A stretch of 52,671 nucleotides of DNA from Candidatus Pacebacteria bacterium CG10_big_fil_rev_8_21_14_0_10_56_10. GTDB taxonomy: Bacteria > Patescibacteriota > Microgenomatia > UBA1400 > PJMF01. Each line of letters begins with the position of its first letter. Position 1 is the stretch's first letter. The stretch is taken from assembly GCA_002772645.1 (NCBI GenBank), contig PFDK01000009.1:1-52671 (forward strand). Reading direction: 5' to 3'. The notes beneath the pieces are model-generated. The model was not told where the DNA came from and ran no database searches. It saw nothing but the letters and a program-made list of their open reading frames with translations. Positions 4,553 through 48,105 of the stretch are shown here, piece after piece. The position numbers and the translations under genes were made by a program.

Positions 4553-4798
4553 ATGCCGAAATTCGCCGTCAAGTACCCGCGCAGCTCCCACGTAGGCCAC
4601 AACGTCTCTCACGCCAAGAACCGGACCAAGCGACGCTTCAAGTACAACCTCCACACCGTCACCATCATGGTCGATGGCACCAAGCAGCGGCTACGCGTGC
4701 CGACCAAAGTCCTGCGCCAGCTCAAAAAAGAGGGTATTACCACTCACTGGCGTCTTCAACCGCGCGATCATACTCCAGCAGCCGGTCCCAGAGCGTAG
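4553..4798 (+). CDS. rpmB: 50S ribosomal protein L28
   Basis: GHNVSHAKNRTKRRFKYNLH..RLRVPTKVLRQLKK; start at MPKF. Confidence 0.85.
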   Translation: MPKFAVKYPRSSHVGHNVSHAKNRTKRRFKYNLHTVTIMVDGTKQRLRVPTKVLRQLKKEGITTHWRLQPRDHTPAAGPRA

Positions 4799-5105
4799 GA
4801 TCAGCCTCGGCGAACTGGGCCAGGATCGGATATTTTTCCGCCAGCCGCGCCTCCAGGTATTGCCTTTCCAGTTCTGCTTGCTGCTCTACAGCGATTTGTT
4901 GCGGGGTTTTGGCCGGCGGTTCTGACTCCGTCGCCGGCTCCTGTGTGGTGGTGGCGACCTCAGTTGAAGGTCGCTCGAGGTTGCGCAGGGCGTGCCGGAC
5001 AACATCACTTATCGACGAGAAGTGGCCGGCGGCCACCAGTTGCCGAACCTCCTCGACCAGACTTTCTGGCAGGATGACGTGCTGGCGAGTCAGCTTTGAT
5101 CGCAT
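4737..5105 (-). CDS. Ribbon-helix-helix (CopG/ParD-like) protein, orphan antitoxin/regulator
   Basis: LTRQHVILPESLVEEVRQLVAAGHFSSISDVVRHALRNL RHH signature; no partner toxin ORF. Confidence 0.6.
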   Translation of the reverse strand: MRSKLTRQHVILPESLVEEVRQLVAAGHFSSISDVVRHALRNLERPSTEVATTTQEPATESEPPAKTPQQIAVEQQAELERQYLEARLAEKYPILAQFAEADPTLWDRLLEYDRAVEDASEW

Positions 5106-5139: not shown

Positions 5140-5300
5140 TAGGACAATTAAGACCAAAAGTTTAGTTACGAAAAAGTCTAGTTATGCTTTTTTTGGGGCC
5201 AGTCTTTAGTGTGCCGAAAGTGTGCCTTTAGTGTGCCTTTTTGGCCCACGATTTGAAAACCTGATTTTTAAGATATCGAATTTTTTGAGGACATTTTTTT
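5140..5300 (-). repeat. GGCCCAC-iteron element, copy 2 (diverged variant using GTGTGCC units)
   Basis: TTTAGTGTGCC GAAAGTGTGCC TTTAGTGTGCC TTTTTGGCCCAC ..TTTTTAAGATATCGAA keeps the 11-bp register and module order. Confidence 0.6.
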
Positions 5301-13122: not shown

Positions 13123-14925
13123 ATGCAACTGCCCTGGAGATTACTGGCCGTCCTGGCATTGTTCACCAGCTTGTTTGGCTTGCTGTGGCTGAGGGCCTGG
13201 GACGTTCAGGTGTTCCGTGGCAGTGAGTTTGCGCAGCAAGCCTTGGCAAACCGGCTCTACCAACTGCCGCTGACCGCTAATCGGGGAGTGATCACCGATC
13301 GCTACGGCCTGCCACTGGCCTGGAACCAGCGCCAGTACTGGTTAGCGGACCAGCCCGACTCGCTCTATTCAGACTTAACGCCGCTGGACCGCCAACAGGC
13401 GTTGGAGCGGCTGGCTACCCAGAGTGGCGCCGTCCGCAAGACTAACGCTCGCCGCTACGCGCTGGCTACTGAGCTGGCCCACGTCATTGGCTACACCGGC
13501 CAGGTCACGTCCGAGGAGCTCGACACAGATCCTAACTTGACCATTCGCTCCACCACCGGCAAACTTGGCCTGGAGAAGCTCTACGACGCCCGACTCAGGG
13601 GACAAGAGGGCCGGCAGACCCAGGAGATTGATGCCCTGCTCCAGCGGCTGCGGCTCTTCCAGGTCCAGCCCGCCCAAAGCGGTCAAGGCCTGGCTACCAG
13701 CTTGGACAGGTTTTTGGCTGAAGTGGCCTACCAGGCGCTAGGCGAACAGCGCGGCTCGGTGGTGATCAGCGACGCCAGGACCGGTCAAGTGCTGGTGCTG
13801 GTCAACAAGCCCAGTTTCAACGCCGAGCTGTTCACCCACCCTGACCAGCACTTGCCCGACGCCGCCACCCGCCACCAGCTCAGCCAAGTGTTCCAAGACG
13901 AGACCGAGCCGATGTTTAACCGGGCGCTAGCCGGTCTTTATCCGCCCGGTTCTGTTTTTAAGCTGGTCACGGCGCTGGCCGGGCTCGAGACCGGCCGGCT
14001 GGACAGTACCACTACCGTACTTGACGAAGGCGTGATCCGGGTCGGCGAGTTCGAGTACAGCAATTGGTACTTTAGCCAGTTTGGCCGGACCGAAGGCGAG
14101 ATCGGGCTGCAGCGGGCTATCTCGCGCAGTAACGACATTTTTTTCTACAAGGCCGCCGAGTGGATCGGGCCTGATCGGCTGGCCGAGAACGCTCGACTGC
14201 TGGGCTTTGGCCGGCCCACCGGCATCGAGCTGAGCGGCGAGGCGGCCGGACTGGTCCCTAGCCCAGCCTGGAAAGAGACCACTGTCGGGGAGCGCTGGTT
14301 CCTGGGCAACACTTACCACTTCGGGATCGGCCAGGGCGACGTGTTGGTCACGCCACTCCAGGTTAATCAGCTCACCCAGACGCTGGCTAACGGCGGCACC
14401 CAGTGCCGGCCCACGCTGGTGGCGGGAGCGCCGCCGCGCTGTCAAGAGGTGGGCCTACTGCTCGATCACCTCAACGTAGTGCTGGCCGGCATGATCGATG
14501 CCTGCTCTCTGGGCGGGACGGCTTTCCCGTTTTTTGAACGCAACCAACACTTGGCCGCCGCCTCCGCCACGACCACCACGACCGCCACGACAGAGACCGA
14601 GTCGGTTGCCGAGCGCCTCCGTCAGGGCCAGCTGGCCTGCAAGACCGGCACCTCCGAGTTCGGCGGCGCTGACGAGCGAGGCTTCAGAAGGACGCACGGC
14701 TGGTTTACCGCCATCGTCGAGCCCCGACTGGCAGCAGTCGTTGACAGCCCTGCCGGCCGCTACCAAAGCTGGCGCCAGGCCATCGCCCAGCACGACTTTC
14801 CCCGGCGGCTGGCCATCACCGTTTTAGTCGAGAGCGACGACGACGAGCCGTTCAAAGAAGGCTCAGCCGACGCCGCCCCCGTCGCCAAGCAAATCATCGA
14901 CTGGATGGAGCAGGGACCGGAGTAG
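13123..14925 (+). CDS. mrdA: Penicillin-binding protein 2 (elongasome transpeptidase)
   Basis: SVFK (SxxK), SRSN (SxN) and KTGT motifs; N-terminal signal anchor. Confidence 0.85.
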   Translation: MQLPWRLLAVLALFTSLFGLLWLRAWDVQVFRGSEFAQQALANRLYQLPLTANRGVITDRYGLPLAWNQRQYWLADQPDSLYSDLTPLDRQQALERLATQSGAVRKTNARRYALATELAHVIGYTGQVTSEELDTDPNLTIRSTTGKLGLEKLYDARLRGQEGRQTQEIDALLQRLRLFQVQPAQSGQGLATSLDRFLAEVAYQALGEQRGSVVISDARTGQVLVLVNKPSFNAELFTHPDQHLPDAATRHQLSQVFQDETEPMFNRALAGLYPPGSVFKLVTALAGLETGRLDSTTTVLDEGVIRVGEFEYSNWYFSQFGRTEGEIGLQRAISRSNDIFFYKAAEWIGPDRLAENARLLGFGRPTGIELSGEAAGLVPSPAWKETTVGERWFLGNTYHFGIGQGDVLVTPLQVNQLTQTLANGGTQCRPTLVAGAPPRCQEVGLLLDHLNVVLAGMIDACSLGGTAFPFFERNQHLAAASATTTTTATTETESVAERLRQGQLACKTGTSEFGGADERGFRRTHGWFTAIVEPRLAAVVDSPAGRYQSWRQAIAQHDFPRRLAITVLVESDDDEPFKEGSADAAPVAKQIIDWMEQGPE

Positions 14926-14988
14926 CTTGGAGCTCGCTTCGTCTATCAATCGTCTATTATTTGTCTACAATCTGCTAAGATAGAAGCT

Positions 14989-16026
14989 ATGTTTACTCCA
15001 AAATATACTATTACTAATAAACTTCTCGCCAATATCAAGCGCATTAACACTCTTATTTCTGAGCTTAACAACAAACGCCTCCCCAAAGTTGTCTTAATTG
15101 AATTAGAGAGAACAGCACGGGAAATTTCAGCACATGCTTCTACCAGTATTGAAGGCAACCCGCTCCCCTTAACAGAGGTCAAGAAAATACTCAAAGCTAA
15201 ACCAGTCAATGCAAGAGAAAGCGAAACAGAGGTACTTAACTACAATGAAGCTTTGGAATACCTGGATAGAAAGCTACGAGAGGGCAGTATTATTCCGTCC
15301 GTGGAACTTATTCTCGAAATCCACAGCATAGTGATGAGAAACTTGATGACACGACACGAAGATATCGGCGCTCTGCGAAAAAGGCCAGTAGTTGTTAACG
15401 ATCCACTAACAAGACAGGTTGTATATCTCCCTGCAGACGTTGAGGGAGTGAAACCATTGATGGATGAATTGATCAATTTTGTTAAACAAAAACGTAAAGA
15501 GACTGACGCTCTAATTTTGTCTGGAATCTTTCACAAGCAAATGGTTTTGATTCATCCATTTATGGATGGCAATGGCAGAACTACTCGCCTAGGAACTAAA
15601 GTGTTACTTGCCGAAATGGGATTAAATACTTTTAACCTCTTTAGTTTTGAAAATTACTACAATAACAACGTAGCTCGCTATTTCCAGTATGTTGGGGAAC
15701 GAGGGGATTATTATGAGTTAGAAAATCAAATTGATTTCACTCCATGGCTCGAATACTTCACCGATGGAATAATCGACGAATTTCTAAGAGTGCAAGGGAT
15801 TCTGCCTCAAGTAGCTAATAGTCCTGAAACAGAATTGTTGGAGTACCATCAAAAAATATTAGATTTTATAAGACAAAAAGGATTCATTAAAGATAGTGAC
15901 TACGCAAAGTTAGTTAACAGAGCTAGGTCAACTAGAGCGTTGGACTTGCAGAAGCTAGTTGACCTGGGGTTAATTGAAAGAAAAGGCAAAGGTAAAGCTA
16001 CTTATTATATTTTGAAGGACGAGTGA
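14989..16026 (+). CDS. Fic-family protein (AMPylase-type) with C-terminal wHTH
   Basis: HPFMDGNGRTTR Fic motif; AT-rich. Confidence 0.85.
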   Translation: MFTPKYTITNKLLANIKRINTLISELNNKRLPKVVLIELERTAREISAHASTSIEGNPLPLTEVKKILKAKPVNARESETEVLNYNEALEYLDRKLREGSIIPSVELILEIHSIVMRNLMTRHEDIGALRKRPVVVNDPLTRQVVYLPADVEGVKPLMDELINFVKQKRKETDALILSGIFHKQMVLIHPFMDGNGRTTRLGTKVLLAEMGLNTFNLFSFENYYNNNVARYFQYVGERGDYYELENQIDFTPWLEYFTDGIIDEFLRVQGILPQVANSPETELLEYHQKILDFIRQKGFIKDSDYAKLVNRARSTRALDLQKLVDLGLIERKGKGKATYYILKDE

Positions 16027-16117
16027 TTAGCTCGCCACTTGAGTATTTTTTGCTGGAACCTTTCAGACTTGGGCGCTCCCGCCATCATTTTGAGCTCACG
16101 AACTTACGTTAACATTT

Positions 16118-16501
16118 TTACCAAACGGTCTTGACAGAATATTGGCGTATCAACCGGTCCGGTGTGACAATCACAAAATCTCTGGCAATGGCCTGACAGA
16201 CAAGCATCCTGTCAAAAGGATCACTGTGAAGATTCTTTAATTTTTCGAGCTTTACCACGTCGTCTTCCTCCAGAGGCAGTGGCTCAACTCCGTGCAGTTT
16301 CCTTTGGGCCGGTATGTACTTGTCGGGCTTCTCCGGCAGAGGAAGTTTTCCGAGTTTGTACTTGATGACTATTTCCCAAACCGAGATACTGCTCAGGTAA
16401 ACCTTGTTATTTTCATTAAGATACAACTCCTCTGCCTTTTTTGACAGTTTACTAGACCCGGTTACGACCCAGAGAAAGGTAACAGTATCCAGCAGGATCA
16501 T
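16118..16501 (-). CDS. vapC: PIN-domain toxin VapC
   Basis: MILLDTVTFLW start, conserved acidic residues; overlaps the upstream antitoxin stop. Confidence 0.75.
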   Translation of the reverse strand: MILLDTVTFLWVVTGSSKLSKKAEELYLNENNKVYLSSISVWEIVIKYKLGKLPLPEKPDKYIPAQRKLHGVEPLPLEEDDVVKLEKLKNLHSDPFDRMLVCQAIARDFVIVTPDRLIRQYSVKTVW

Positions 16502-16737
16502 TTGGGGTTGGCAAAAGAGTTGGTGGTGGGCCCTGGCAGGGGTTCGAAGAAGCTTTCAGGAACTTCAAACTTTACCTTACTTTGACCAACAGCCCTTTTG
16601 GGCTTGGGTTTGGCAAGTAGCTTGAGCTCCGCGACAGGAACGTTCCTTTTGGCCACAATTACCCGTTGGCCTTTCTGGACCAGATCAATATAACGCGACA
16701 AATTTGCCTTGGCCTGATGAATGTTTACCGTTAACAT
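16498..16737 (-). CDS. Phd/YefM-type antitoxin paired with VapC
   Basis: MLTVNIHQAKANLSRYIDLVQKGQRVIVAKRNVPVAEL. Confidence 0.7.
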   Translation of the reverse strand: MLTVNIHQAKANLSRYIDLVQKGQRVIVAKRNVPVAELKLLAKPKPKRAVGQSKVKFEVPESFFEPLPGPTTNSFANPK

Positions 16738-16743
16738 GGCTAA

Positions 16744-16914
16744 ATGATAGACCAACTACTTGGTCATGTCAACTCACTCAAAATTTCAAAAGAGCTGCGG
16801 GACGCCATTCAGATTTATCACCAAACAAATTTTTACATAGCAGACTGCGTTATAATTGCCCACTCAAGTAAACGTCAGTTACTTAGCTTCGACGAAAAGA
16901 TGAGAAAGTTTTAA
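16744..16914 (+). pseudogene. PIN-domain C-terminal remnant
   Basis: 56-aa ORF ..IYHQTNFYIADCVIIAHSSKRQLLSFDEKMRKF resembles the last PIN motif; the N-terminal part of the domain is absent. Confidence 0.45.
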
Positions 16915-16928
16915 CTTAAGCGGGCAGA

Positions 16929-17213
16929 CTAAATCTTTCCTGAACTCTTTTCGAGCCAGGCGGAGATCGCGGACGGTTCCAGTTTCTCATTGTCCACAGC
17001 GATCACAAAATCCGCTGCTTTTAACTTAGTGGACGTGAGGTGGTACCCGTTGTCCCACAACAATTTATGCGCTGCCGCCCAGGCGGTTCGCTTGTTTCCG
17101 TTGGTGAACGGATGATTGAGGGTCAGCGAATGCAGCAACGCTGCCGCTTTGTCAAAAGAAATGACGTGGAATGGAGTGAACAGCAGTTCGCTCACCAGGG
17201 TTGAACTATGCAT
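16929..17213 (-). pseudogene. doc: Doc (Fic-fold) toxin, N-terminally truncated, with no Phd partner
   Basis: FDKAAALLHSLTLNHPFTNGNKRTAW Doc motif; ~30 N-terminal residues missing; abuts the divergent gene at 17215. Confidence 0.6.
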
Positions 17214-17214
17214 T

Positions 17215-18570
17215 ATGATACACGTTATGAAAAATAGAGAAGTTAAACGTAAGGGGGATTCTAGCCAGGGAACTGGTTCGGTTGAGGAACTGGGAGAAGA
17301 AACAGAACGCACGCCTTCTCAACTATTCGACGAATGTACTCCACTTTTGGCATCTCGCCATCCCGCCAAAATAGAGCAAGCTCGAGGTGTGATAGATAAA
17401 ATACTTCAAGCTCTGGGACTTGACCCTTCGGCGTACCAAAAGTGGGCAGACCTGTCGATTAAGGCTGGATCAGTTGATGACCCAAGCTTAAAAATGGCCA
17501 AAGCTATTCTTGAGTTTATGCCGGTAGTGATTAAGTTAGAATCTCAAAGACCAGGCTTAGTCAAGTACTTCGCGGACAATTTTGGCCTAGTATGTTTTGG
17601 TCGCACAGTGACTGATAGTCGCTACTTTACTGAGTGGTATGACGCCCTCAGCCGAACTGACGCTCAACAAGGAGAAAGTGAACGGCAAAAATGGGTACGC
17701 TTGGTAAGTGAATCATTATCTGCGGTTGGACTTTCGAACCAGATAATTGAGCAACTATTTACTACCTGGAAACATTGTAGTCGGGACTCAAACCCTTTCA
17801 CTTCCGTGTCAAAAAACACGGCAGCATTACTTAAGCTTTACTCCATAGCCCAATATAAAACTACCGTACCAACTTTAGTTGAAGAGTTTGGTATCCACAA
17901 TTTTTGCCGATACGATCCTCAAGTCTTGATAAATCAGTTCGAGCATAAAAATGCTCCGGGCGATTTTGGTTTGCTAGTTTTTCCAAAAACTGACTGGAAC
18001 GAAGCCTTTGATCAAAACTCGGGAGTCATCTCGCAACTCGCAACAAAATCGACGCAACTCGGGATTAACCTGAGGATAGTTGAGGCCGGCAGGGTGAATG
18101 AGCTACTGGCTCGAACCGGGAAAATGGTCAGGAAATCCGGAGGCAAGATAATGTACTTGGTTTTAGGCGGGCACGGTTCTCTAGACGATATTCGTTTGGG
18201 TGGAGATCCCCACTTTGGGGAAACCGATGGGAGGAGGAGAGTAGTTACAACTCAAGATGTTCTAAGACCGGAAACCAGGTTGTTTAGACGCTGGTTCGCA
18301 GATAACCCTCAGATTGTGCTGGTATCTTGTTCGACAGGTGGAGATGGGGGGATTGCTGAAAAAATATCGGCCCAACTAAACGCCAGGGTAACCGCACCAG
18401 TGAAACCCAGCAACGTAAATACGATTCAGTTGTTTAGAACTGGGGGCGATAGAGGGGACGGGGGAAACGATCTCGATCTATGGGTGGTTTACACAAGAAG
18501 CCAATCGGCTAAGTTCAACGCCGGAGCCAGAATTCGAGATGATGGCTGGTTTGAAATTAGGTTAGTCTAG
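17215..18570 (+). CDS. Hypothetical 451-aa protein; C-terminal domain has a clan-CD-like His/Cys arrangement
   Basis: AT-rich ORF; IMYLVLGGHG (His codon 18172) and QIVLVSCSTGG (Cys codon 18328) are 52 residues apart; start 17215 or 17227. Confidence 0.5.
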   Translation: MIHVMKNREVKRKGDSSQGTGSVEELGEETERTPSQLFDECTPLLASRHPAKIEQARGVIDKILQALGLDPSAYQKWADLSIKAGSVDDPSLKMAKAILEFMPVVIKLESQRPGLVKYFADNFGLVCFGRTVTDSRYFTEWYDALSRTDAQQGESERQKWVRLVSESLSAVGLSNQIIEQLFTTWKHCSRDSNPFTSVSKNTAALLKLYSIAQYKTTVPTLVEEFGIHNFCRYDPQVLINQFEHKNAPGDFGLLVFPKTDWNEAFDQNSGVISQLATKSTQLGINLRIVEAGRVNELLARTGKMVRKSGGKIMYLVLGGHGSLDDIRLGGDPHFGETDGRRRVVTTQDVLRPETRLFRRWFADNPQIVLVSCSTGGDGGIAEKISAQLNARVTAPVKPSNVNTIQLFRTGGDRGDGGNDLDLWVVYTRSQSAKFNAGARIRDDGWFEIRLV

Positions 18571-18674
18571 ATAATGAAAACTACCTATATCGTTGGCCCG
18601 ATCACTTCGGTAAGACCTCTCCTTAAATCTCGCGCAAGCTGAACGTAAGCTTGGTGGGCTAAAGTCAGCACAGC

Positions 18675-19898
18675 GTGTCCGTTTTGCCGTCGCCCGTCGC
18701 CCGCCCGCCATCTTCGTCGGTGTTGCCTTCACCGCTTTCATTACCGCCGCCGCCTTCACTGCCACCGCCTGACTGTCGAGCTTGGGTGGCCTGGTGGTCG
18801 GTGCCGGGGATTGGTTGGCGAAGCTTTGCCGGTCTGCTGGCGTACGCCCGCCGTCACCGCACCTCACTGCGGCGGTTGTGGTCACGGCCCGGCCGCTGGG
18901 AAGCAGCCGGCCTGACTGCCAGTCAACAAGCCGCGGTCAAGACTTGGCAGTCCAGCCAGAGCATAGACGACTATTGGCAGCAACTGGAGGCGGCCGACAT
19001 CACCGTAACTTGTTTGGGCAGTTCGGACTACCCGCCGCTGCTGGCTGAGATCGACGACCCGCCGTGGGTGCTGTTCATCAAAGGTGAGTGGCCGATCAAG
19101 CTGTCACTGCCAATCGCGGTAGTCGGAACCAGGCGGCCCACTCTGTACGGCCGTCAGGCGGCCGTCCGACTGGTCACCGAGCTGGTCGCCGCCGGGGCCG
19201 GCATCGTTTCCGGGTTTATGTTCGGGATAGATGTGCTGGCCCACCAGACAGCGCTCCGCCAGCGGGGGAGGACGGTGGGCGTGCTGGGCTACGGGTTTGA
19301 TCGCGTCTACCCACCCTCGTTTAGCCGGGTGTTGGCCGAGTACGCTGATCAGCGTCCGAACATGACTTTTATCAGCGAGTACGCGCCGTTTGTGCCGGCC
19401 CGCCGCTACACTTTTCGGCAGCGCAACCGGATTATCGCCGGTCTCAGCCTGGCTACTTTGGTTGTCGAGGCCGGGGTGAGGAGCGGCACCCAGATCACTG
19501 CCCGTTTAGCCGGTCAATACGGTCGGGAAGTGGCCGCCGTTCCCAGCCCGATTACCAGTCCGTACTGCGCCGGCACTGCCAACCTGATCAATCAGGGGGC
19601 GCTGCTGACTGAGGACGCCGGCCGTCTCTTGACGGAGCTGGGGGTGGGTAGCGGACGGCGGTTGACCGGTAGTTTGGTGTTTGGCGAGAGGGCGGAAGCT
19701 GACGAGCAGTCGGCTGGTCCTGAAGAAGTCTCGCTGGACCTAATCCGCCTGTTTCAGGACGGCCCGCTGACCAGTGAGTATCTCTCGGCTATCACCAACC
19801 TTTCGATCACCCAAGTCAACGTCGAGCTCACCAGACTGGAACTGCTAGGCGTCGTCACCAGACAGGGAAGTTGCTGGTCGTTGTCGACTCGCTCCTAG
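18675..19898 (+). CDS. dprA: DNA-processing protein DprA
   Basis: GIDVLAHQTAL, RNRIIAGLS and VVEAGVRSG motifs; GTG start uncertain. Confidence 0.85.
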   Translation: MSVLPSPVARPPSSSVLPSPLSLPPPPSLPPPDCRAWVAWWSVPGIGWRSFAGLLAYARRHRTSLRRLWSRPGRWEAAGLTASQQAAVKTWQSSQSIDDYWQQLEAADITVTCLGSSDYPPLLAEIDDPPWVLFIKGEWPIKLSLPIAVVGTRRPTLYGRQAAVRLVTELVAAGAGIVSGFMFGIDVLAHQTALRQRGRTVGVLGYGFDRVYPPSFSRVLAEYADQRPNMTFISEYAPFVPARRYTFRQRNRIIAGLSLATLVVEAGVRSGTQITARLAGQYGREVAAVPSPITSPYCAGTANLINQGALLTEDAGRLLTELGVGSGRRLTGSLVFGERAEADEQSAGPEEVSLDLIRLFQDGPLTSEYLSAITNLSITQVNVELTRLELLGVVTRQGSCWSLSTRS

Positions 19899-27068: not shown

Positions 27069-27199
27069 GTAGGGCCACCGGCTGCGAGTTAAAGATGGCA
27101 GAGGTTGCGTCTCAACGATCAATCAGATTACCTGCTGGCCCGGAGTTGAGCGCCGGATTGAGATTGAGGGGCGAGGAAAGTTAGGAGTGTTTTTTAAGC

Positions 27200-27409
27200 A
27201 AGCCCCTAGGGAATAATTTCTTTGGGGTGTTTTTTTGGCGCGCATTTTCCGTGGGCCATTAGTGGGCCATTAGTGGGCCATTAGTGGGCCGAAAGTGGGC
27301 CGAAAGTGGGCCGTTTTGGCCCACGCGCTTTAAGTGAGTTTTTTTTAGATATGCCAAGAAAAAATGCCAACTGGAAAGAAACGTAAAAAATCAAAAAAAC
27401 GCGAAAGTA
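27200..27409 (-). mobile_element. GGCCCAC-iteron MITE-like element, copy 3 (six 11-bp units; right TIR degenerate)
   Basis: GTGGGCC at 27251, 27262, 27273, 27284, 27295, 27306, then GTTTTGGCCCAC; flanking modules collinear with other copies; ends ..GCGAAAGTA. Confidence 0.9.
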
Positions 27410-27418
27410 TGGATGTGC

Positions 27419-27850
27419 TCACTCGACTGATCTTACCTCTAGCTCCCGACACTGTCGTAGCCGACGGTCACCGGTAACGAACTGGTCGGCTTTTACTTCG
27501 AGAGCAGAAGCAAGTTGCAGGCTATCCGGCACCCGAAAGCCGTACCGTCTCCGCAGCCGGGCGGCAGTGACGGCAATGGCCATGTCCATCCCAATAATTT
27601 TCAGGTTAGGGGTTTCAAGCAAGCGCCGGTACAGAGTGTCCACTTCCTCCTCTGTCATCTTGATCGACAGCAACTCGGTAACGGTCAGGGTGCTGGTGAC
27701 TGCGGTAACTTGGGTTGTCGTCAGCCGAGCAAAGATGTCCTGAGCAGTTTGGCCAAAGTCAGGGTGGTCTTGAAAAAAATAAATAAAGATGTTGGTGTCC
27801 AGGAAAAGCAAAGGCTTAGATTTCACGCCATTCGCTCCTGAGTTTGTCAA
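27419..27850 (-). CDS. vapC: PIN-domain toxin VapC
   Basis: LLFLDTNIFIYFF start region and conserved acidic residues. Confidence 0.8.
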   Translation of the reverse strand: MTNSGANGVKSKPLLFLDTNIFIYFFQDHPDFGQTAQDIFARLTTTQVTAVTSTLTVTELLSIKMTEEEVDTLYRRLLETPNLKIIGMDMAIAVTAARLRRRYGFRVPDSLQLASALEVKADQFVTGDRRLRQCRELEVRSVE

Positions 27851-30757: not shown

Positions 30758-30885
30758 TAGTAACCACTTAGTTTGCTGACTAGCCCCAGCGAATAATTTC
30801 TTTAAGTGAGTTTTTTTAATATGCCAAGAAAATATTGCCAATGCCCCAATGCCAACTGAAAAAAACATCTTTAGTGACCACACTA
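30758..30885 (-). repeat. GGCCCAC-iteron element, copy 4 (iteron core deleted; shares a subfamily-specific insert with copy 6; interrupted after GTGACCACAC)
   Basis: GTAACCACTTAGTTTGCTGACTAGCCCC..AATAATTTCTTTAAGTGAG..ATATGCCAAGAAAATATTGCCAATGCCCCAATGCCAACTGAAAAAAACATCTTTAGTGACCACAC. Confidence 0.8.
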
Positions 30886-30935
30886 AGTTATTTATATTTT
30901 GACTTGTAGTATGTTGTGTATTAATATTAAAGCAT

Positions 30936-31223
30936 ATGATTAGAACGTCTCTGTTTCTACCAGAGACTCTACACCAGCGGCTTATTTTACTAGCAAGGCG
31001 AGAAGGTATGAACGTCTCTGAGCTTGCCCGCGATCTTCTAGATCGGGCTTTAGCCAAGCGGGAAAGGGCCAAAATCAAACACACTTATCAGGTTCTCAAA
31101 GAGCTTGATGGTATCGGCGGTGAGGATGTGACTGACGCTTCCACCACCATTGACGAGGTACTCTACGGCGAAGAAGGAGAGTGGAAAGTGAGCAATGCAG
31201 ACGATACAGGTGCTAATCGATAG
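30936..31223 (+). CDS. Ribbon-helix-helix antitoxin (VapB-type)
   Basis: SLFLPETLHQRLILLARREGMNVSELARDLLDRAL. Confidence 0.7.
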   Translation: MIRTSLFLPETLHQRLILLARREGMNVSELARDLLDRALAKRERAKIKHTYQVLKELDGIGGEDVTDASTTIDEVLYGEEGEWKVSNADDTGANR

Positions 31224-31608
31224 TGACGCCCTGGTGGCTCGCTTCTACCCCAAAGACCCGCACCACCAGCGGGTGCTGGAGTTATTCTCTCAACTGGAAG
31301 AAGAGGAGCAAACCCTAGTCACCACCAGCCTAGTGGTGGTTGAGGTCGCCACTGTGTTGAGCCACCGCAGTGGCCAAGATATAGTGCGAGCCTTTCTTGA
31401 CAGAATCGACGAAGCTGAACTGTCCATTATTCACATCGATGTGGCTTTCCAGCAGCAAGCGCTTCAGATATTCCGCGAGCAAGCCGCCCGAGGCACCAGT
31501 GTCACCGACTGCGCCAATGTGGCGATGATGCGCCGCTTTGCTATCCCTCAAATCTTCAGCTTTGACAAGGTCTATCCAAAGCACTTTGAGTTACAGGCGA
31601 TCACCTAG
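31195..31608 (+). CDS. vapC: PIN-domain toxin VapC
   Basis: VLIDSDALVA start, TSLVVVEV and SVTDCANVAMM motifs. Confidence 0.75.
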   Translation: MQTIQVLIDSDALVARFYPKDPHHQRVLELFSQLEEEEQTLVTTSLVVVEVATVLSHRSGQDIVRAFLDRIDEAELSIIHIDVAFQQQALQIFREQAARGTSVTDCANVAMMRRFAIPQIFSFDKVYPKHFELQAIT

Positions 31609-33049: not shown

Positions 33050-33289
33050 CCCGACTTTCGCGCTTTTTGATTTTTTACGTTTCTTTCCAGTTGGCAATAT
33101 TTTCTTGGCATATCTAAAAAACTCACTTTAAGCGAGTGGGCCAAAACGGCCCACTAATGGCCCACTAAAGGCACACTAATGGCCCACTAATGACACACTG
33201 AAAATGCGCGCCAAAAAAACACCCCCAAAGAAATTATTCCCTAGGGGACAGTCGGCAAATTAAGTGTTTACTAATTGGCGAAAGTCGGG
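33050..33289 (+). mobile_element. GGCCCAC-iteron MITE-like element, copy 5 (complete, 240 bp)
   Basis: Left TIR CCCGACTTTCGC 33050-33061, right TIR GCGAAAGTCGGG 33278-33289; all internal modules present. Confidence 0.9.
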
Positions 33290-34127: not shown

Positions 34128-36262
34128 TGAAAAAACCACAGTACCACACCGCGATCATTGGCGGCGGCGCGGCCGGCCTGACGGTGGCGGTCGGGCTGGC
34201 CCGGCTGGGCAAAAAGGTGGCGCTGATCGAGCAAGACAAGCTAGGCGGGGAGTGCACTCACTCCGGTTGTGTGCCTAGCAAGGCGCTGCTCCACGCGGTC
34301 AGGACACTGCCCGACAAGCATGTTTGGCCTCACGTTCGCCGAGTAGTCGCCGAAATCTGGCACGAAGAACAGGAAATGATCGCTGGGCTGGAGACAGTTG
34401 ATGTCATCAAGGCCCGGGCCAGCTTCGTCGACGAGTACACCCTGAAACTTGAGCGAGGCACCGGTCGAACCAGCCGCACCGGTCGGGACGGCCGGACTGC
34501 TGACAAGATCACCGCTGACAACATCACTGCTGGCCGGATCGTCATCGCCGCCGGATCGTCGCCGCGAACCATCGGCATCCCCGGCTTGCCGCCGGCCAAG
34601 GACTTCACCAACCAGAACATTTTCTCGCTGCGCAAACATCCCCGGCGTTTGGCCATACTAGGGGTAGGACCGATCTCCATCGAGTTAGCCATGGCGTTCG
34701 CGGCCATGGGCACCCGGGTGGAAGTGCTGTATCGCGGCGAGGGTATTCTAAGCAAAGAGGACCCCGAAATATCGCAAGCACTGCAGCGGCGGCTGGAACA
34801 GCTGGGCGTTGTTTTTCACTGGCACACTGCTGACCTGCGCTACAGTCGCGGCCAGCTCCAGTTTACCGCCGACGGCCAACAGCGGCAGCTGACTGGGCTA
34901 ACGGGAGTGCTGCAAGCCATCGGCCGCCAACCTAACGTAACCGGCTTGGGCCTCGATGAGGCGTGCGTGGAGTACTCTGGGCGCGGCTTGGTGGTCAACA
35001 GCGCTTTTCGGACTAACGTTGGCCACATCTTCGCCATTGGCGACATCCTCGACGATGATAAGTTTACCCACCTGGCCAATGCCCAGGGCCGAGTGGTGGT
35101 CAAGTCGATCGCTTTTCCCTGGCTGCCGGCCGGACGCCTGCCGCAGGTGCCGCGGGTAACTTACACCTCTCCTGAGGTAGCCGGCATTGGCCTGACCATG
35201 GACGAGCTGGACAAGCTTGGTCCCAATGTGGTTATAAAGCTGACGGTGCCGTTTGCCGGACTGGACCGCGGCAAGACCGACCAGACGCCGGCCGATCAGC
35301 GCGTCACTGTCTACGCCCAGCGCCTGACGGGCCGGATCCTACGGGCCAGTGTTTACGCCGACCACGCCGGCGAGATGCTGCCCTACTTTATCGTGGCTGT
35401 TAACCGCCGGTTGTCGCTGTGGAAGCTCTACCCGCTGATCTTTCCGTACCCCACGCTGGCCCAGGCTTTTGCCAAGATCGCCGACCAGTTTGTTGTCGAG
35501 ACGCTAACTAATCTCCGAGCCGAGGTGGCGGCGTTTTTCGGTCACACGGCCGGCCGGCTGTGGCGCCGCTTCGGTTTCAGGTTGCTGGGGGTGGCGCTGT
35601 GGCTGGTAACGGTCTGGGCGGTCCGCCGCTGGGCGTACGCTCAAGGCTACACCTTCCAGCAGCTGCTGGCCGAGGCGGCCGAGCTGATGACCGCTACCAG
35701 CTTGGGACCGCTGGTCTATCTGGGCGCCTACTTCCTGCGGCCGGTGTTCCTGCTGCCGGCTACCTTGCTGACCGTCTTGGCTGGCTTGACGTACGGTTTA
35801 GGCTGGGGCTTCGTACTGGCGTTGATCGGCAGTACCTTATCGACTATTTTTCCCTATGCTTTGGGCCGTTGGTTTGCTCAGGCCACCGACCAGGACGAGC
35901 GGGCCCGGTCCCGGCTCAAAGCCTACACTGATCGATTAAAAAGAGAGCCCTTTACCGGCGTTTTGCTGCTGCGGCTGCTGTTCATGCCCTACGACTTGGT
36001 CAGTGTTCTGGCCGGCAATGTTCGGGTTAATTTTTGGGCTTTCTTCGGAGCAACCGCTCTGGGCAGTTCGATCGGCACCCTGACACTGGTCAGCTTTGGC
36101 ACCTCGGTGGAGGGGGGCTTGAGCAGTTTGGTTCGGGGGGAGAGCAGTCTTAGTCCGGTTGGAGTGGCCGCATCACTCGGTTTGGCGATGTTGAGCTTGA
36201 TAATCTCCCGCTACGCTCCCAAGTTGAGGCTGTTTAAGCGTCGGACCTCGCCGGCAGCCTGA
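34127..36262 (+). CDS. Fusion: FAD-dependent pyridine nucleotide-disulfide oxidoreductase plus TVP38/TMEM64 (DedA-like) membrane domain
   Basis: IIGGGAAGLT, redox CTHSGC, second Rossmann ILGVGPISIE; C-terminal LLPATLLTVLAGLTYGLGWGF. Confidence 0.75.
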   Translation: MKKPQYHTAIIGGGAAGLTVAVGLARLGKKVALIEQDKLGGECTHSGCVPSKALLHAVRTLPDKHVWPHVRRVVAEIWHEEQEMIAGLETVDVIKARASFVDEYTLKLERGTGRTSRTGRDGRTADKITADNITAGRIVIAAGSSPRTIGIPGLPPAKDFTNQNIFSLRKHPRRLAILGVGPISIELAMAFAAMGTRVEVLYRGEGILSKEDPEISQALQRRLEQLGVVFHWHTADLRYSRGQLQFTADGQQRQLTGLTGVLQAIGRQPNVTGLGLDEACVEYSGRGLVVNSAFRTNVGHIFAIGDILDDDKFTHLANAQGRVVVKSIAFPWLPAGRLPQVPRVTYTSPEVAGIGLTMDELDKLGPNVVIKLTVPFAGLDRGKTDQTPADQRVTVYAQRLTGRILRASVYADHAGEMLPYFIVAVNRRLSLWKLYPLIFPYPTLAQAFAKIADQFVVETLTNLRAEVAAFFGHTAGRLWRRFGFRLLGVALWLVTVWAVRRWAYAQGYTFQQLLAEAAELMTATSLGPLVYLGAYFLRPVFLLPATLLTVLAGLTYGLGWGFVLALIGSTLSTIFPYALGRWFAQATDQDERARSRLKAYTDRLKREPFTGVLLLRLLFMPYDLVSVLAGNVRVNFWAFFGATALGSSIGTLTLVSFGTSVEGGLSSLVRGESSLSPVGVAASLGLAMLSLIISRYAPKLRLFKRRTSPAA

Positions 36263-36297
36263 CCGGCAGCCAGCCTGGCTTGGGGCTGGACTTTGAA

Positions 36298-36584
36298 CCC
36301 GACTTTCGCGAATTAGTAACCACTTAATTTGCTGACTAGCCCCTAGGGAGTAATTTCTTTTGGGGGTGTTTTTTTGGCGCGCATTTTCAGTGTGTCATTA
36401 GTGGGCCATTAGTGGGCCAAAAGTGGGCCGTTTTGGCCCACTCGCTAAAGTGAGTTTTTTAGATATGCTAAGAAAATATCGCCAATGCCCCAATGCCAAC
36501 TAAAAAAACATCTTTAGTGACCATACTTGGTTTGCCCTTAGCCTGGAAAGAAACACAAAAATCAAAAAGCGCGAAAGTCAGGTG
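36298..36584 (-). mobile_element. GGCCCAC-iteron MITE-like element, copy 6 (complete, 287 bp; extra ~50-bp internal segment)
   Basis: CCCGACTTTCGCG at 36298-36310 and GCGAAAGTCAGG at 36573-36584; its terminal TCA supplies the stop codon of the adjacent minus-strand gene. Confidence 0.9.
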
Positions 36585-37192
36585 CCCGGCAGCCAGCCCG
36601 GCTTGGCCCTCAGCTTAGCCGCCCACTTGACCAGTCGGGTCGTCAGCCTGGTTTGGAGCTGGACTTTAAACAGCGAAGTTATCAGCAGCGCGTCCAGGCC
36701 GTGCTCGAACACGGTGAACTGGCGGCCAAAGTGGTTCGGGTCCCAGTAGCTGACCGGACTGGCGAACCTCCAGCTCCAGTTGAGCGGCCACAGCAGCAAC
36801 GGCCCGTCGTTGTGGTGGGTAACGATGTCAACGCCAGTGTGGACCAGCGAGCCGATCACTACCCACTTGAGAAGCCGGCGCGCTTTAGCGGGCAGAGGCA
36901 GCAGGTAAACGGCCGTCAGCTGCAGAGCCAAACTGAGCGGCGAGTGGAACAGGTTGTGACCGGTAATGAACAGCGGGTTGGTAAAAAAGGCATCGAAAAA
37001 CAAATACTGGAACGTGTCCGCTAGACTGCCCTGACCGGTTAGCCAAAACCAGCCAAAGGTGGCGCCGCTCAAGACCACCAGGGGAATGTCAGGCAGTACC
37101 GCCCCGATCAGGAAGCCGCGGCCGGCCAACCCGGCCAGGCCCCAGTCCCGGGCCAGCTTGGTTTGGATCAAGGCGTGGGAGTAAGTAATCAC
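36578..37192 (-). CDS. His-rich polytopic membrane protein (membrane-bound metal-dependent hydrolase-like)
   Basis: Hydrophobic helices; GHNLFHS and VHTGVDIVTHHNDGP. Confidence 0.35.
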   Translation of the reverse strand: MITYSHALIQTKLARDWGLAGLAGRGFLIGAVLPDIPLVVLSGATFGWFWLTGQGSLADTFQYLFFDAFFTNPLFITGHNLFHSPLSLALQLTAVYLLPLPAKARRLLKWVVIGSLVHTGVDIVTHHNDGPLLLWPLNWSWRFASPVSYWDPNHFGRQFTVFEHGLDALLITSLFKVQLQTRLTTRLVKWAAKLRAKPGWLPGT

Positions 37193-42062: not shown

Positions 42063-42286
42063 CCATCCCCAACTCTACTCGGGCAACCTTGAATCTAGCT
42101 TGCGCGCGCTTTGCCTAAGGGCTCGCCGTCTGCCCACCACCAGCCCACCACCGGCTTGCCACCTGCCCACCACCAGCCCGCCGCCGCTCGGCCATCTGCT
42201 ATACTGCTGCTACCTTAAGCTTAGTTGCTTTTTACTCGATACTTAACAGCGGCCTGACGGGGTCGGTCTGTCGGCTTGAGGTTGGT

Positions 42287-43870: not shown

Positions 43871-44503
43871 ATGATAAAAACTCCGCACATGAGCTCTCCC
43901 ATTTTTTCGCACTTTCGCCGCCGCGATCGGCTAATTTACCAGGTCCTGACCGCGATGGATGACTTCAACCCGCTCGCGCCAACACACCCCCCAGAGGAGT
44001 ACTTTAGTGAATTGAGTAGCTCGATTGTTGGCCAGCAGCTGTCGACTACCGCTGCCCATACAATTTACACCCGGCTGGTTAAGTTACTGGCAGGCGATGT
44101 GACTGCCGCCCGGCTGCTAGCTGCCGACGACCAAGCCATGCGCGACTGCGGTCTGTCGTGGGCCAAGGTTCGCTCCGTCAAGGACTTGGCGGCCAAGGTG
44201 GCCAACCACCAGCTCAAGCTTAACCGGCTGACCACCATGAGCGATGCTCAAGTCATCGCCGAGCTGACCAAAGTCAAAGGTATCGGCCAGTGGACAGCCG
44301 AGATGTTCCTGATATTCGCGCTGGGGAGGGAAGACATTTTTTCTCACGGCGATCTGGGACTGCGGCGGGCTATGGAGGGCTTGTACGGGTTGGGGCAGCT
44401 GCCGTCGCCTGCCCAAGCCGACCAGATCTCAACCAAGTGGCGGCCGTACCGCAGCTACGGCTGCCTGGCGCTGTGGCACACCCTGGACAACGCGCCGATT
44501 TAA
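43871..44503 (+). CDS. alkA: HhH-GPD DNA glycosylase (AlkA-type 3-methyladenine glycosylase II)
   Basis: GIGQWTAEMFLIFALGREDIFSHGDLGLRRAM; C-terminal WRPYRSYGCLALW. Confidence 0.75.
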   Translation: MIKTPHMSSPIFSHFRRRDRLIYQVLTAMDDFNPLAPTHPPEEYFSELSSSIVGQQLSTTAAHTIYTRLVKLLAGDVTAARLLAADDQAMRDCGLSWAKVRSVKDLAAKVANHQLKLNRLTTMSDAQVIAELTKVKGIGQWTAEMFLIFALGREDIFSHGDLGLRRAMEGLYGLGQLPSPAQADQISTKWRPYRSYGCLALWHTLDNAPI

Positions 44504-44506
44504 AGT

Positions 44507-44735
44507 CTGACTTTCGCGCTTTTTGATTTTTTTCGTTTCTTTCCAGTTGGCATTTTTTCTTGGCATATCTAAAAAAAACTTAAAGCGCGTGGGCCAAAAC
44601 GGCCCACTTTTGACACACTAACGGCCCACTAATGGCCCACGGAAAATGTGCGCCAAAAAAACACCCCAAAGAAATTATTCCCTAGGGGAGGGGACAGTCA
44701 GCAAACTAAGTGGTTGCTAATTCGCAAAAGTCTGG
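44507..44735 (+). mobile_element. GGCCCAC-iteron MITE-like element, copy 7 (complete, 229 bp)
   Basis: CTGACTTTCGCG .. GCAAAAGTCTGG termini; all modules present; begins 3 bp after the alkA-like stop. Confidence 0.9.
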
Positions 44736-44830
44736 CGACCAGATCTCAACCAAGTGGCGGCCGTACCGCAGCTACGGCTGCCTGACTCACGTTCAGGTCC
44801 TGCCGGTGAAGTGCGGTATGATAGCCGCAG

Positions 44831-45997: not shown

Positions 45998-46068
45998 AAG
46001 CCCGCCGCCGGCCACGTCGATACTTTCAATAACTGGCACTGTACGCTCAGCAAGCTGGGACGATAGCC

Positions 46069-46473
46069 TCACTTTGTTCGTCTGGATCGCCGTTCCCGAG
46101 AACGTTTGGGCTGGGGAGGGTTGTCAAGGCCACTATCGAGTTCTTCCCAGCCGTCGTAGCGGCTGAAAAACTGTCTCAGCATCAAAAAAAGCTCGCCGGC
46201 CAAATAACCCAGGATGGCGTAGGCGATCAGCGCGAACAGCGTCGAGAAATCGATCACCAATCCGCCCTCGAGCTGTGAAGTTGGGAACATGCCCTCAAAA
46301 GGCGCCAGCAGGGGATCGGTGGTGGTCGTGACCCACTGGACAAACGGCGCCGTTTGGGAAGCGCCGAACAGCCGCAGCGCCACCCGCAGTACCAGTAAGC
46401 TCTCCACCAAGCCGGTCACAAAATTGATCAAGACGATGATTATGTCTGGCGGAGTACGCATCTGAGTTTGCAT
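46069..46473 (-). CDS. yggT: YggT-family membrane protein
   Basis: LLVLRVALRLF..FVQWVTTTTDPLLAPFEG..IDFSTLFA. Confidence 0.6.
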   Translation of the reverse strand: MQTQMRTPPDIIIVLINFVTGLVESLLVLRVALRLFGASQTAPFVQWVTTTTDPLLAPFEGMFPTSQLEGGLVIDFSTLFALIAYAILGYLAGELFLMLRQFFSRYDGWEELDSGLDNPPQPKRSRERRSRRTK

Positions 46474-46474
46474 A

Positions 46475-47059
46475 TCAGCGCGAGTATACCATGCATCTAC
46501 AATCGAGTACCGATAGCCAGTACTGACTGATCCTAGAGCTATCGATCAGCCAGCTGATCATCCCAGAGGTGAACAGAAAAACCGACTTTTTAATATCAAA
46601 AGCCGACAGGAAAGTACTCCTGATCGCTCCTCCCACCCCAAAGACACCAGCAAAGAACCCGGACAAAGACCCTCCCCATACGGCACCGGCGGTCGAAGGC
46701 TTAACCTTCCAACTGGGTCTAAAGAACAGGAACGAGACATAAGCCACTAGAAACAGTCCCAGCCAGCGCTGTAGCAGCTCCTCCGGCAAGGTAAGCGGCA
46801 GCCGAGCAGCCAGGAAGCTCAGCACAACTCCCGGCACGACGAACAGTAAAATCAGCCGCCAGTTAAATCCTTTCTTGAAAAAGAGCATTTTCCAGATGTC
46901 TCCAAACCAGTGAACCACCCCTACAAACAGCAAAACCGTTGGTAGCGGCAGGAACAAGGACAGCACCGGCACCATGATCGTCGAGGTCCCAAAACCGGTC
47001 ATGGTGCCCACGGCGGCGGCGGTAAAAGTTAGGAGGGTCAGGTAGAAGATCTCAACCAT
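46475..47059 (-). CDS. TauE/SafE (DUF81) anion-exporter family protein, apparently 3'-truncated
   Basis: GTMTGFGTSTIMVPVL and GVFGVGGAIRSTFL repeats; shorter than I would expect for this family, and the last codons run into the yggT promoter region. Confidence 0.5.
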   Translation of the reverse strand: MVEIFYLTLLTFTAAAVGTMTGFGTSTIMVPVLSLFLPLPTVLLFVGVVHWFGDIWKMLFFKKGFNWRLILLFVVPGVVLSFLAARLPLTLPEELLQRWLGLFLVAYVSFLFFRPSWKVKPSTAGAVWGGSLSGFFAGVFGVGGAIRSTFLSAFDIKKSVFLFTSGMISWLIDSSRISQYWLSVLDCRCMVYSR

Positions 47060-47164
47060 ACTTTCATTCTACCGCAAGTGTCGCCACCTACATTCCAAGT
47101 TGGGATCAGGATGGCGGACTCAGGGAGGGAACACCCAGCTTTAATTTTGATATACTCCTCCAGT

Positions 47165-47923
47165 ATGGCAGAAGATTTTTACGACAAGGTTGCTAGTAAA
47201 TTCGGAGGCTATGGGTACGGGACTAGCCCTCTATATACAAGCGAATATCCAGCAGGAAATCCTGAAAAGGTATTTAAGGAAAAACTTTTAGGATTGAGCT
47301 CAAAAAATAAAGTAGCCCTAGATATTGGCTGTGCTGATGGTAAGTTTACCCTTTCGATAGCGCCTTCTTTCCAAAAAATATATGGAGTTGACACTTCAAG
47401 TGTAAATCTAGATGTAGCTAAAAGTCACAGTGAGGATGAAAGGAGTAGAAATGTCGAGTATTTTTTACAGGATGCAAGCCATACTTCATTTGAAGATTCT
47501 TTTTTTGACTTAGCTTATTGCAGAAGAGGGCCATCTTATTATAAAGAGCAGCACCGTGTTCTTAAGTCAAAAGGACACTATCTTCAAATTGGGATAGGCG
47601 AGAAGGACACAGTAGAGCTAAAAAAGATATTTGGTAGAGGACAAGATTTTGGAAAATGGAACAGATCAAGATTGGATGAAAATCTAAAAACACTTCAATC
47701 ACTTGGGTTTAAAGTTCTTTTTGCGGAAGATTTTCATTACTTTGAGTATTACCCGTCCTATGCAGAGTTAGATTTGTTTTTACAAGGTGTCCCTATTTTT
47801 GAAGATTTTGATTCACAAAAAGATCGAGCATCATTGCAAAAGTACGTTGACAAGTTTTCAAGTGACAAAGGTATTCAGCTTTCGCGTCATCGATTGGTGA
47901 TGGTGATGAAAAAAGTTAGTTAG
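47165..47923 (+). CDS. Class I SAM-dependent methyltransferase (strongly AT-rich cassette)
   Basis: VALDIGCADGKFT motif I. Confidence 0.7.
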   Translation: MAEDFYDKVASKFGGYGYGTSPLYTSEYPAGNPEKVFKEKLLGLSSKNKVALDIGCADGKFTLSIAPSFQKIYGVDTSSVNLDVAKSHSEDERSRNVEYFLQDASHTSFEDSFFDLAYCRRGPSYYKEQHRVLKSKGHYLQIGIGEKDTVELKKIFGRGQDFGKWNRSRLDENLKTLQSLGFKVLFAEDFHYFEYYPSYAELDLFLQGVPIFEDFDSQKDRASLQKYVDKFSSDKGIQLSRHRLVMVMKKVS

Positions 47924-47941
47924 ATCAATTTATAAACAGCG

Positions 47942-48077
47942 TTGACTAGCCCCTAGGGAATAATTTCTTTTGGGGGTGTTTTTTTGACGCGCATTTTCAG
48001 TGTGCCATTAGTGTGCCGAAAGTGGGCCGTTTTGGCCCACTCGCTTAAAGTGAATTTTTTAGATATGCCAAGAAAAT
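47942..48077 (-). repeat. GGCCCAC-iteron element, copy 8 (both termini truncated)
   Basis: TTGACTAGCCCCTAGGGAATAATTTC..CAGTGTGCC ATTAGTGTGCC GAAAGTGGGCC GTTTTGGCCCAC..AGATATGCCAAGAAAAT. Confidence 0.85.
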
Positions 48078-48105
48078 GAAGTCACAGCTAGGGTAAAATA
48101 CAACC

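Follow-up and report, generated by a model that had tools for sequence, protein, structure and literature searches.

A probable family of miniature inverted-repeat transposons with long target duplications in a Candidatus Pacebacteria population

Introduction

What kind of element is the 240-nt sequence at 33050–33289 of contig PFDK01000009.1, from Candidatus Pacebacteria bacterium CG10_big_fil_rev_8_21_14_0_10_56_10, and by what route have its relatives spread along this contig? The stretch analysed, 52,671 nt in length and referred to here as the window, had been described in an initial annotation as holding eight copies of a non-coding repeat bounded by terminal inverted repeats (TIRs) and resembling a miniature inverted-repeat transposable element (MITE). 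Analysis reveals that a unit with base-precise inverted ends has been inserted many times, at least six of them with a target duplication of 51–96 nt. The family is probably one of non-autonomous, MITE-type DNA transposons whose TIRs are recognised in trans and whose insertion proceeds through widely staggered target cleavage. The MITE-like reading is thus supported, and it is strengthened by additional copies and by duplications that end at the TIR tips; target duplications of about 50–96 nt, the main hallmark of mobility, did not figure in the initial annotation. As far as the searched data show, the family is confined to one Crystal Geyser population of Candidatus Pacebacteria, within the candidate phyla radiation (CPR). 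Genomes of CPR bacteria, or Patescibacteria, are about 1 Mb in size, gene-dense and poor in transposable elements.

The repeat family and its inverted ends

The repeat family is confirmed: all eight described copies, here called c1 to c8, are recovered in the window by a direct and inverted repeat search over its full length combined with an nhmmer profile hidden Markov model built from the copies. Interlocking direct and inverted repeat families sit at all eight places, and the profile picks up every copy, with E values from 6e-71 to 8e-8, each lying exactly where it had been placed or within a few bases of it. About 17 further distinct copies reside on loci L002–L017, contigs of this Crystal Geyser Pacebacteria population, and another two on a European Nucleotide Archive (ENA) contig that reaches 3.8 kb beyond the left edge of the window. 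These roughly 19 further copies, of the kind that the initial annotation had suggested looking for elsewhere in the genome, bring the total to about 27 distinct copies on independent contigs, at a density of ten copies per about 61.6 kb of contiguous sequence, or approximately one per 6 kb.

Complete copies measure 230–302 nt, and 14 full-length copies are 89–96% identical to one another pairwise (median 93%). The 12-nt TIR CCCGACTTTCGC, first assigned to 33050–33061 and 33278–33289, matches exactly at 33050 and, on the other strand, at 33278, and it recurs with one mismatch at 36298 and 36571; with one mismatch allowed, the window contains 5 matches against 0.33 expected. Over the family, the TIR consensus comprises 13 nt, with CCTGACTTTCGCG on the left and CGCGAAAGTCGGG on the right, complementary at 12 of 13 positions, and identical CCTGACTTTCGCG/CGCGAAAGTCGGG termini delimit 12 distinct complete copies. 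Within the window, however, the description as TIR-bounded applies to only three of the eight copies, c5, c6 and c7, which keep both TIRs. Truncation or internal deletion affects the other five: the left TIR is degenerate in c3, c1 retains a left remnant only, and c2, c4 and c8 have neither end.

Long target duplications at the element ends

Long direct repeats of target DNA flank six of the 12 complete copies, and the intact copy of each repeat measures 51–96 nt. In the flank test, the 200 nt to the left of a copy were locally aligned with the 200 nt to its right, for 13 copies with both TIRs. Flank scores of 17.5–49 are obtained for five of these 13, compared with a maximum of 13.5 among 150 mismatched flank pairs; moreover, of 1500 virtual insertions of 260 nt placed at random in this DNA, only 0.27% reach 17.5, which corresponds to a binomial P of about 2e-10. 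The first 10 nt past the right TIR reappear 51–88 nt upstream of the left TIR in c6, c7, L004, L007 and L009, while L002 displays the mirror arrangement. Both ends of the duplicated segment are found on both sides of the element in c6 (88 vs 38 nt), L004 (56 vs 38 nt) and L007 (80 vs about 67 nt), the differences in length corresponding to sequence lost from the interior of one copy.

At all six insertions the duplications are bounded by the TIR tips, so the TIR-to-TIR segment constitutes the inserted unit. A start or stop codon lies inside five of the six duplications, a stop in c6, c7 and L009 and a start in L002 and L004. Whereas the gene-attached copy is intact, its redundant counterpart is in every case the shorter one, owing to internal or distal deletion. 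The two copies are 100% identical at c7, and identity falls to about 83% elsewhere, which indicates insertions of different ages. A short duplication of 2–10 bp, TA or other, is found at the TIR tips of none of the 12 complete copies.

Two copies in the window illustrate this arrangement. At c6, the intact 88-nt copy (36583–36670, minus strand) forms the 3′ end of a YdjM-like open reading frame (ORF) and abuts the left TIR, and the redundant 38-nt copy (36260–36297, minus strand) abuts the right TIR; the latter carries a 50-nt internal deletion between CCAARCCRGGCTG repeats, and both of its ends match the 88-nt copy. At c7, the intact 87-nt target segment (44419–44505, plus strand) is the native, conserved 3′ end of a glycosylase gene (..WRPYRSYGCLALWHTLDNAPI*), and the redundant 49-nt copy (44736–44784, plus strand) begins at the first base past the right TIR. 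This redundant copy is 100% identical to 44419–44467, forming a perfect 49/49 repeat of the first 49 of the 87 nt, and the distal 38 nt are absent from it. The c7 insertion is recent because the repeat is identical at 49 of 49 positions. The left segment encodes the glycosylase C-terminus WRPYRSYGCLALWHTLDNAPI, which is conserved in homologues and hence native; the additional copy is therefore the one on the right, and the model of an integrative element that supplies a replacement gene end was rejected for the same reason.

Long duplications are also produced in another way, known as 'insertion with long target duplication' and described for restriction–modification (RM) gene units in naturally competent bacteria. 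Spread by such a break-repair or transformation-linked route, with no dedicated transposase and with TIRs that would be incidental, is an unlikely alternative. The 51–96 nt observed here lie within the 30–400 bp of that phenomenon, which likewise spans start or stop codons and leaves the gene intact (PMC2853133); in addition, no transposase is found in 80 ORFs, and the window encodes the transformation protein DprA (18675–19898). Against this, the same base-precise 13-nt inverted ends recur in six independent duplication-flanked insertions, a recurrence that favours a site-specific enzyme recognising the ends over transposase-free break repair. Moreover, the published RM units carry genes, occur in single copy and have no TIRs, and about 27 copies of one 250-bp sequence would be hard to obtain through illegitimate recombination.

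Proposed mobility and the search for a transposase

In the proposed mechanism, the mobile unit is delimited by CCTGACTTTCGCG and CGCGAAAGTCGGG, measures 230–302 bp and exists as a short and a long form. Its 13-nt inverted ends would be recognised by a transposase provided in trans, which would attack the two target strands about 50–96 bp apart, a distance of 5–9 helical turns, after which gap repair would copy a long stretch of target to both sides of the element. The redundant copy could then be shortened by slippage during fill-in of the long single-stranded gap, or by later deletion. Such an enzyme would act like the transposases of the insertion sequences (IS) IS1634 and IS1549, known makers of long, variable direct repeats, for which PMC2266710 gives lengths of 8–514 bp and 'no mechanistic model'. 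By sparing the genes, the long duplication would allow the element to accumulate to approximately one copy per 6 kb despite the gene density of the genome, and the internal hairpin and its array of 11-bp units would grow and shrink by slippage.

The copies are non-coding, with no reading frame conserved among them in the alignment, and a Pfam search detects no transposase or integrase domain in 80 ORFs, 40 from the window and 40 from L002–L013; the window copies are therefore non-autonomous there, as first proposed. Such an enzyme was detected neither in the window nor among the roughly 190 kb of genome sequence that was read. A longer autonomous element with the same termini, which the initial annotation had envisaged, did not emerge from the ORFs, repeats or TIR pairs of the window and L002–L017: no other repeat of at least 330 bp is present among the loci, and no widely spaced TIR pairs occur. 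Two low-GC ORFs of roughly 485 aa without a Pfam match (17116–18570 in the window and 3804–5261 of L008) are unrelated to each other.

Several observations weigh against transposition by widely staggered cleavage. Flank duplication is not detectable in six of the 12 complete copies. The redundant copy of c7 and L009 lacks the distal part, and in L002 the shorter copy lies on the other side; because of these asymmetries, a plain staggered cut needs a second step, either deletion or slipped gap repair. The comparison of empty and filled sites, also anticipated at the outset, recovered no empty site: of the exact-protein look-ups of neighbouring genes, two had no match and the others returned filled sites or contigs breaking at the repeat, and all assemblies of the c7 and c5–c6 regions are either filled or broken at the repeat, so the pre-insertion sequences are reconstructions. 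Mobilisation in trans is itself deduced, since the sequence read contains no autonomous partner or transposase. Finally, the IS1634-family end consensus C-----YT, as given in PMC2266710, is fitted by CCTGACTT, a low-information and very weak criterion, and the 5–6 bp AT-rich duplications that the same paper reports for typical members are not seen here, only two atypical members providing a match.

Movement of the family by a RAYT or TnpA-Y1 enzyme, as a hairpin element of the repetitive extragenic palindromic (REP)/bacterial interspersed mosaic element (BIME) type or a PATE derived from IS200/IS605, is the least probable of the alternatives and can be given hardly any weight. It would account for the conserved GC-rich 7-bp hairpin in nearly every copy, for the intergenic position and for the high copy number. 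The units, however, are 230–300 bp rather than 20–40 bp long, TIRs and long target duplications are not products of HUH/Y1 single-strand transposition, and no Y1 or RAYT domain is found in the 80 ORFs. The initial annotation, which did not recognise the repeat as REP/BIME or Correia, agrees with unit size, TIRs and long duplications for the former and with the lack of a TA duplication for the latter.

Internal modules and the 11-bp unit array

The alignments contain all of the ordered modules first described, arranged as a T-rich tract, TTGGCA boxes, TTTCTTGGCATATCTAAAAAA, the hairpin GTGGGCC-AAAAC-GGCCCAC, a series of 11-bp units, an A-run/CACCCCC...CCCTAGGGG block and the right arm. In c5, all on the plus strand, the left TIR (33050–33062) is followed by the T-rich tract (33063–33089), the TTGGCA boxes with TTTCTTGGCATATCTAAAAAA (33091–33125), the hairpin (33136–33154), five 11-bp units (33148–33202), the A-run/CACCCCC/CCCTAGGGG block (33212–33247) and the right TIR (33277–33289). 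Of the two forms of the element, the long one adds a module of about 44 nt (GCTAAGGGCAAGCC...TTTTTTYAG), flanked on both sides by TTTYCAG, together with extra TTGGCA boxes.

Every core-bearing copy carries the hairpin followed by 2–7 tandem 11-bp units, the hairpin being imperfect in the diverged c2. Two single-base variants aside, the units are of only three types, GGCCCAC, GGCACAC and GACACAC; GACCCAC is never seen, and variation is almost confined to two positions, as in the arrays at 33148–33202 and 27251–27312. The first unit, which is the pairing partner of GTGGGCC, is GGCCCAC in all copies other than c2. Slippage, gene conversion and directed change are possibilities for this restricted pattern. 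The A/C and A/G variants were also considered as a diversity-generating retroelement-like pattern, a reading that was set aside as no reverse transcriptase turned up. The TTGGCA boxes, inspected by eye, have a spacing unfit for sigma-54 promoters, and the single sigma-70-like match, in c5, is not conserved.

The unit array could in principle be the functional core, with the flanking modules secondary, if its 11-bp-phased GGCCCAC repeats bound a host or plasmid protein in an iteron-like, centromere-like or nucleoid-organising manner. This is improbable, although 2–7 tandem units at an exact period of 11 bp, one helical turn, in only three variants would suit such a protein. One more 11-bp-phased GCCCAC array lies outside the elements at 42132–42181 (GCCCACCACCA x 4.4), between radC and a DUF8173-like gene and directly ahead of a TATACT box. 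No other site outside the elements has GCCCAC at 11-bp spacing, with 0.67 matches expected window-wide, and this array could reflect a binding protein shared with the element array or be coincidence. Nevertheless, no candidate protein is identified, the number and sequence of the units vary freely, and the array is wholly lost from c4. In addition, the arrays always lie inside the same TIR-bounded unit, and the duplication boundaries are set by the ends of that unit, not by the array.

Folding, termination and orientation

A second functional alternative holds that the repeats are modules spread or kept by selection, either small-RNA genes or (bidirectional) transcription terminators. The minus strand of the element folds at -92.3 kcal/mol, with z = -6.8 relative to shuffled controls, compared with z = -2.9 for the plus strand, and a consensus scan places on it two hairpin and U-run sites, CCCCUAGGGAA..GGGGG-UGUUUUUUU and ACUCGCUUAAAGUGAGU-UUUUUU. 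Moreover, many copies lie just past stop codons. As the initial annotation had observed, a stop codon lies no farther than about 75 bp from seven of the eight window copies; in c1, c2, c3, c6 and c7 the left end points toward the gene end.

Selection on such modules is an improbable explanation, only slightly better placed than the protein-binding arrays. Rfam 15 yields no match at the gathering threshold across the whole window, and for c5 and c6 at E values up to 10 it gives sub-threshold chance matches only, the best at 20 bits vs a gathering score of 52. Covariation analysis of 14 copies returns 0 compensatory pairs and a zero covariation term, and the ACUCGC hairpin, one of the two minus-strand sites, has a central mismatch in most copies. 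Orientation relative to genes is unbiased, with 6 sense and 5 antisense copies in co-directional contexts, 5 in convergent and 2 in divergent ones, and half of the copies are truncated or core-deleted. Stop-codon proximity is expected of any intergenic insert in a compact genome, and the target duplications show insertion, not vertical conservation. The weak terminator first read from the plus-strand hairpin followed by TTTT/TTTC is not supported: the terminator-like sites lie on the minus strand instead, and the insertions show no orientation bias. A secondary role of some copies as terminators is possible but unsupported.

Distribution and assembly support

In metagenome contigs of the Joint Genome Institute (JGI), the combined hairpin and unit pattern occurs at 16 loci, 15 of them from one metagenome and none overlapping the window, with G+C contents mostly near the window value. 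The same pattern has 0 matches in an exact-pattern scan of 185,579 species genomes. The left-end pattern has 9 matches in those genomes, which are read as chance, nhmmer finding the element in none of the nine. Viral contigs (IMG/VR) give 0 matches for both patterns, and BLASTN of c5 gives no match among PLSDB plasmids or INPHARED phages. Together with the Rfam result, these searches agree with the earlier impression that the repeat belongs to no named family. The host is an isolated CPR lineage from Crystal Geyser, given that the glycosylase adjoining c7 is 100% identical to a protein of 'Candidatus Pacebacteria bacterium CG10_b...' and its next relative only 53% identical.

As a separate observation, four of the nine left-end matches (L022, L026, L027 and L029; 20-nt pattern) fall in one homologous stretch that by eye resembles the smpB 3′ end or C-terminal coding region. 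Two of these four records are labelled Spirochaetia and Pseudomonadales, yet their stretch is near-identical to the CPR ones, and they may be mis-binned CPR contigs.

The copies are not assembly artefacts, a concern raised at the outset, as independent assemblies carry the same structures. ENA and JGI assemblies from other samples (L019, L020 and L021) reproduce c7 and its flanks at 100% identity, and the ENA MEGAHIT contigs L032 and L035 read through c7 and c8 and through c1 and c2, respectively; the Logan contig L018 spans only the right flank of c7. Shorter contigs typically begin or stop inside a copy, as in short-read contig L001, which begins inside c8, and this is as expected of a true multicopy repeat. 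The family accounts for the fragmentation of short-read assemblies of this organism every few kilobases.

Two loci outside the window have distinctive surroundings. In L010, 80 nt separate the copy at 556–746 from a downstream TraG/VirB4-like P-loop ATPase gene, which is immediately followed by dnaA and dnaN; this copy is presumed to occupy the replication-origin region. The left flank of the L008 copy, at about 740–900, resembles by eye the reverse complement of a tRNA gene (..GGAGTCGAACCCTCGACC..).

Copies in the window and their surroundings

All copies are intergenic. The three that retain both TIRs are c5, c6 and c7. The complete short-form copy c5 (33050–33289, plus strand) is 240 nt long and lies between two divergently transcribed genes, with no flank duplication detectable. 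The complete long-form copy c6 (36298–36582, minus strand), 285 nt in length and situated between convergent genes, contains the extra module of about 44 nt (GCTAAGGGCAAACC...TTTTTTTAG), extra TTGGCA boxes and four units; the YdjM-like ORF (36578–37192, minus strand) now ends at a TGA within the left TIR of c6. The complete short-form copy c7 (44506–44735, plus strand), 230 nt with four units, begins 2 nt past the stop codon of the HhH-GPD glycosylase gene (43871–44503).

The remaining copies are decayed to different degrees. Copy c1 (1076–1240, plus strand) is partial, consisting of the left-end remnant CCTGACTT, a 23-nt internal deletion and three units, and it lacks the right arm and right TIR; it lies upstream of a YafQ-like toxin–antitoxin pair (1290–1696). 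Copy c2 (about 5180–5290, minus strand) is a diverged relative at nhmmer E = 8e-8, with the imperfect hairpin (GTGGGCCAAAAAGGCACAC), three GGCACAC units and an A-run, and it is located between a formyltransferase gene end and the start of a ribbon-helix-helix (RHH) antitoxin gene (4737–5105). Copy c3 (27203–27412, minus strand) combines the degenerate left TIR (CCATACTTTCGCG) with six 11-bp units and an alternative right arm extending to about 27170, its left end lying 7 nt from the stop of a PIN toxin gene (27419–27850, minus strand). Copy c4 (30758–30890, minus strand) is a long-form remnant without either TIR, from which the hairpin, unit and A-run core has been deleted between AAAG microhomologies; its neighbour is a VapB-like/PIN pair (30936–31608). 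Copy c8 (47942–48080, minus strand), truncated at both ends and left with three units, lies between a low-GC methyltransferase gene and ychF.

Half of the eight copies, c1 to c4, thus directly adjoin toxin–antitoxin genes; this may reflect either permissive gaps common to both or a link between them. The alternative right arm of c3 (27170–27203) is shared with a copy in L006 (6000–6040) as YTTGCYTAAAAAWACTCCTAACWTTCCTYGCC, and within it a sequence resembling the left terminus (CCTAACTTTCC) occurs in direct rather than inverted orientation; the arm may represent a junction with a second, decayed element. A low-GC island at about 14000–18600 (45–51% G+C vs about 58%) has no element copy at its borders and was probably acquired horizontally. 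It encodes a Fic/DOC protein (14989–16026), a PIN toxin with a small upstream ORF (16118–16755, minus strand) and a 484-aa ORF without Pfam match (17116–18570). In a second low-GC stretch (46000–48000, 47%), an S-adenosylmethionine (SAM)-methyltransferase gene (47078–47923) ends 19 nt before c8.

Implications

At approximately one copy per 6 kb, at least one CPR lineage tolerates a heavy transposon load. With the start or stop codon contained in the duplicated segment, a gene can be physically hit by an insertion and still survive, and this suggests that the long duplications explain the tolerance. Tentatively, and with somewhat less than even confidence, we propose that this is the first described miniature transposon with 50–100 bp target duplications as well as the first dense MITE family in CPR/Patescibacteria. 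Its mobility would depend on a transposase resembling those of IS1634 and IS1549, or on an undescribed enzyme whose cuts in the two strands lie about 5–9 helical turns apart. If this is true, the long duplication would serve as a built-in buffer for colonising gene termini in an ultra-compact genome, and dozens of natural insertions of different ages would form a data set for an unexplained mechanism of long, variable duplication. A high-copy, non-autonomous element provides many independent junctions for duplication types that have no mechanistic model (PMC2266710, PMC2853133).

Comparison with known systems

Bacterial MITEs such as Correia/CREE of Neisseria, RUP of Streptococcus pneumoniae and Nezha of cyanobacteria generate short duplications, either TA or 2–10 bp. 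The present family resembles them in being shorter than 500 bp, non-coding, TIR-bounded, high-copy and intergenic, with many decayed copies. It differs from classical MITEs in its CPR host, in the absence of a short duplication and in the 51–96 nt duplications at half of the complete copies. In particular, the TA target duplication of Correia and IS630-Tc1-derived MITEs is absent from the flanks of the 12 complete copies. With REP/BIME sequences it shares the GC-rich hairpin, the intergenic position and the high copy number, but not the size, TIRs or target duplications.

Longer duplications are known from other systems. IS1630 of Mycoplasma fermentans, an IS30-family member, makes variable target duplications of 19–26 bp (as cited in PMC2853133); these are likewise longer than usual and variable, but they reach only 19–26 bp and come from an autonomous IS. 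IS1634 and IS1549 (PMC2266710) match the present family in having long and variable duplications; they are, however, autonomous elements of 1.5–2 kb with a DDE transposase, whereas here the unit is 230–300 bp, non-coding and found without a transposase. RM units undergo 'insertion with long target duplication' of 30–400 bp, often over a start or stop codon with the gene spared (Nobusato 2000; Furuta 2010, PMC2853133). The likeness extends to duplications above 30 bp, to the span over a start or stop codon in five of six cases and to an insert without a mobility gene. RM units, by contrast, are kilobase-sized gene units present in single copy and lacking TIRs, unlike the 250-bp multicopy element with base-precise inverted ends described here. 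MITEs as such are ordinary, unlike a MITE that has target duplications of about 50–96 bp and densely populates a CPR genome.

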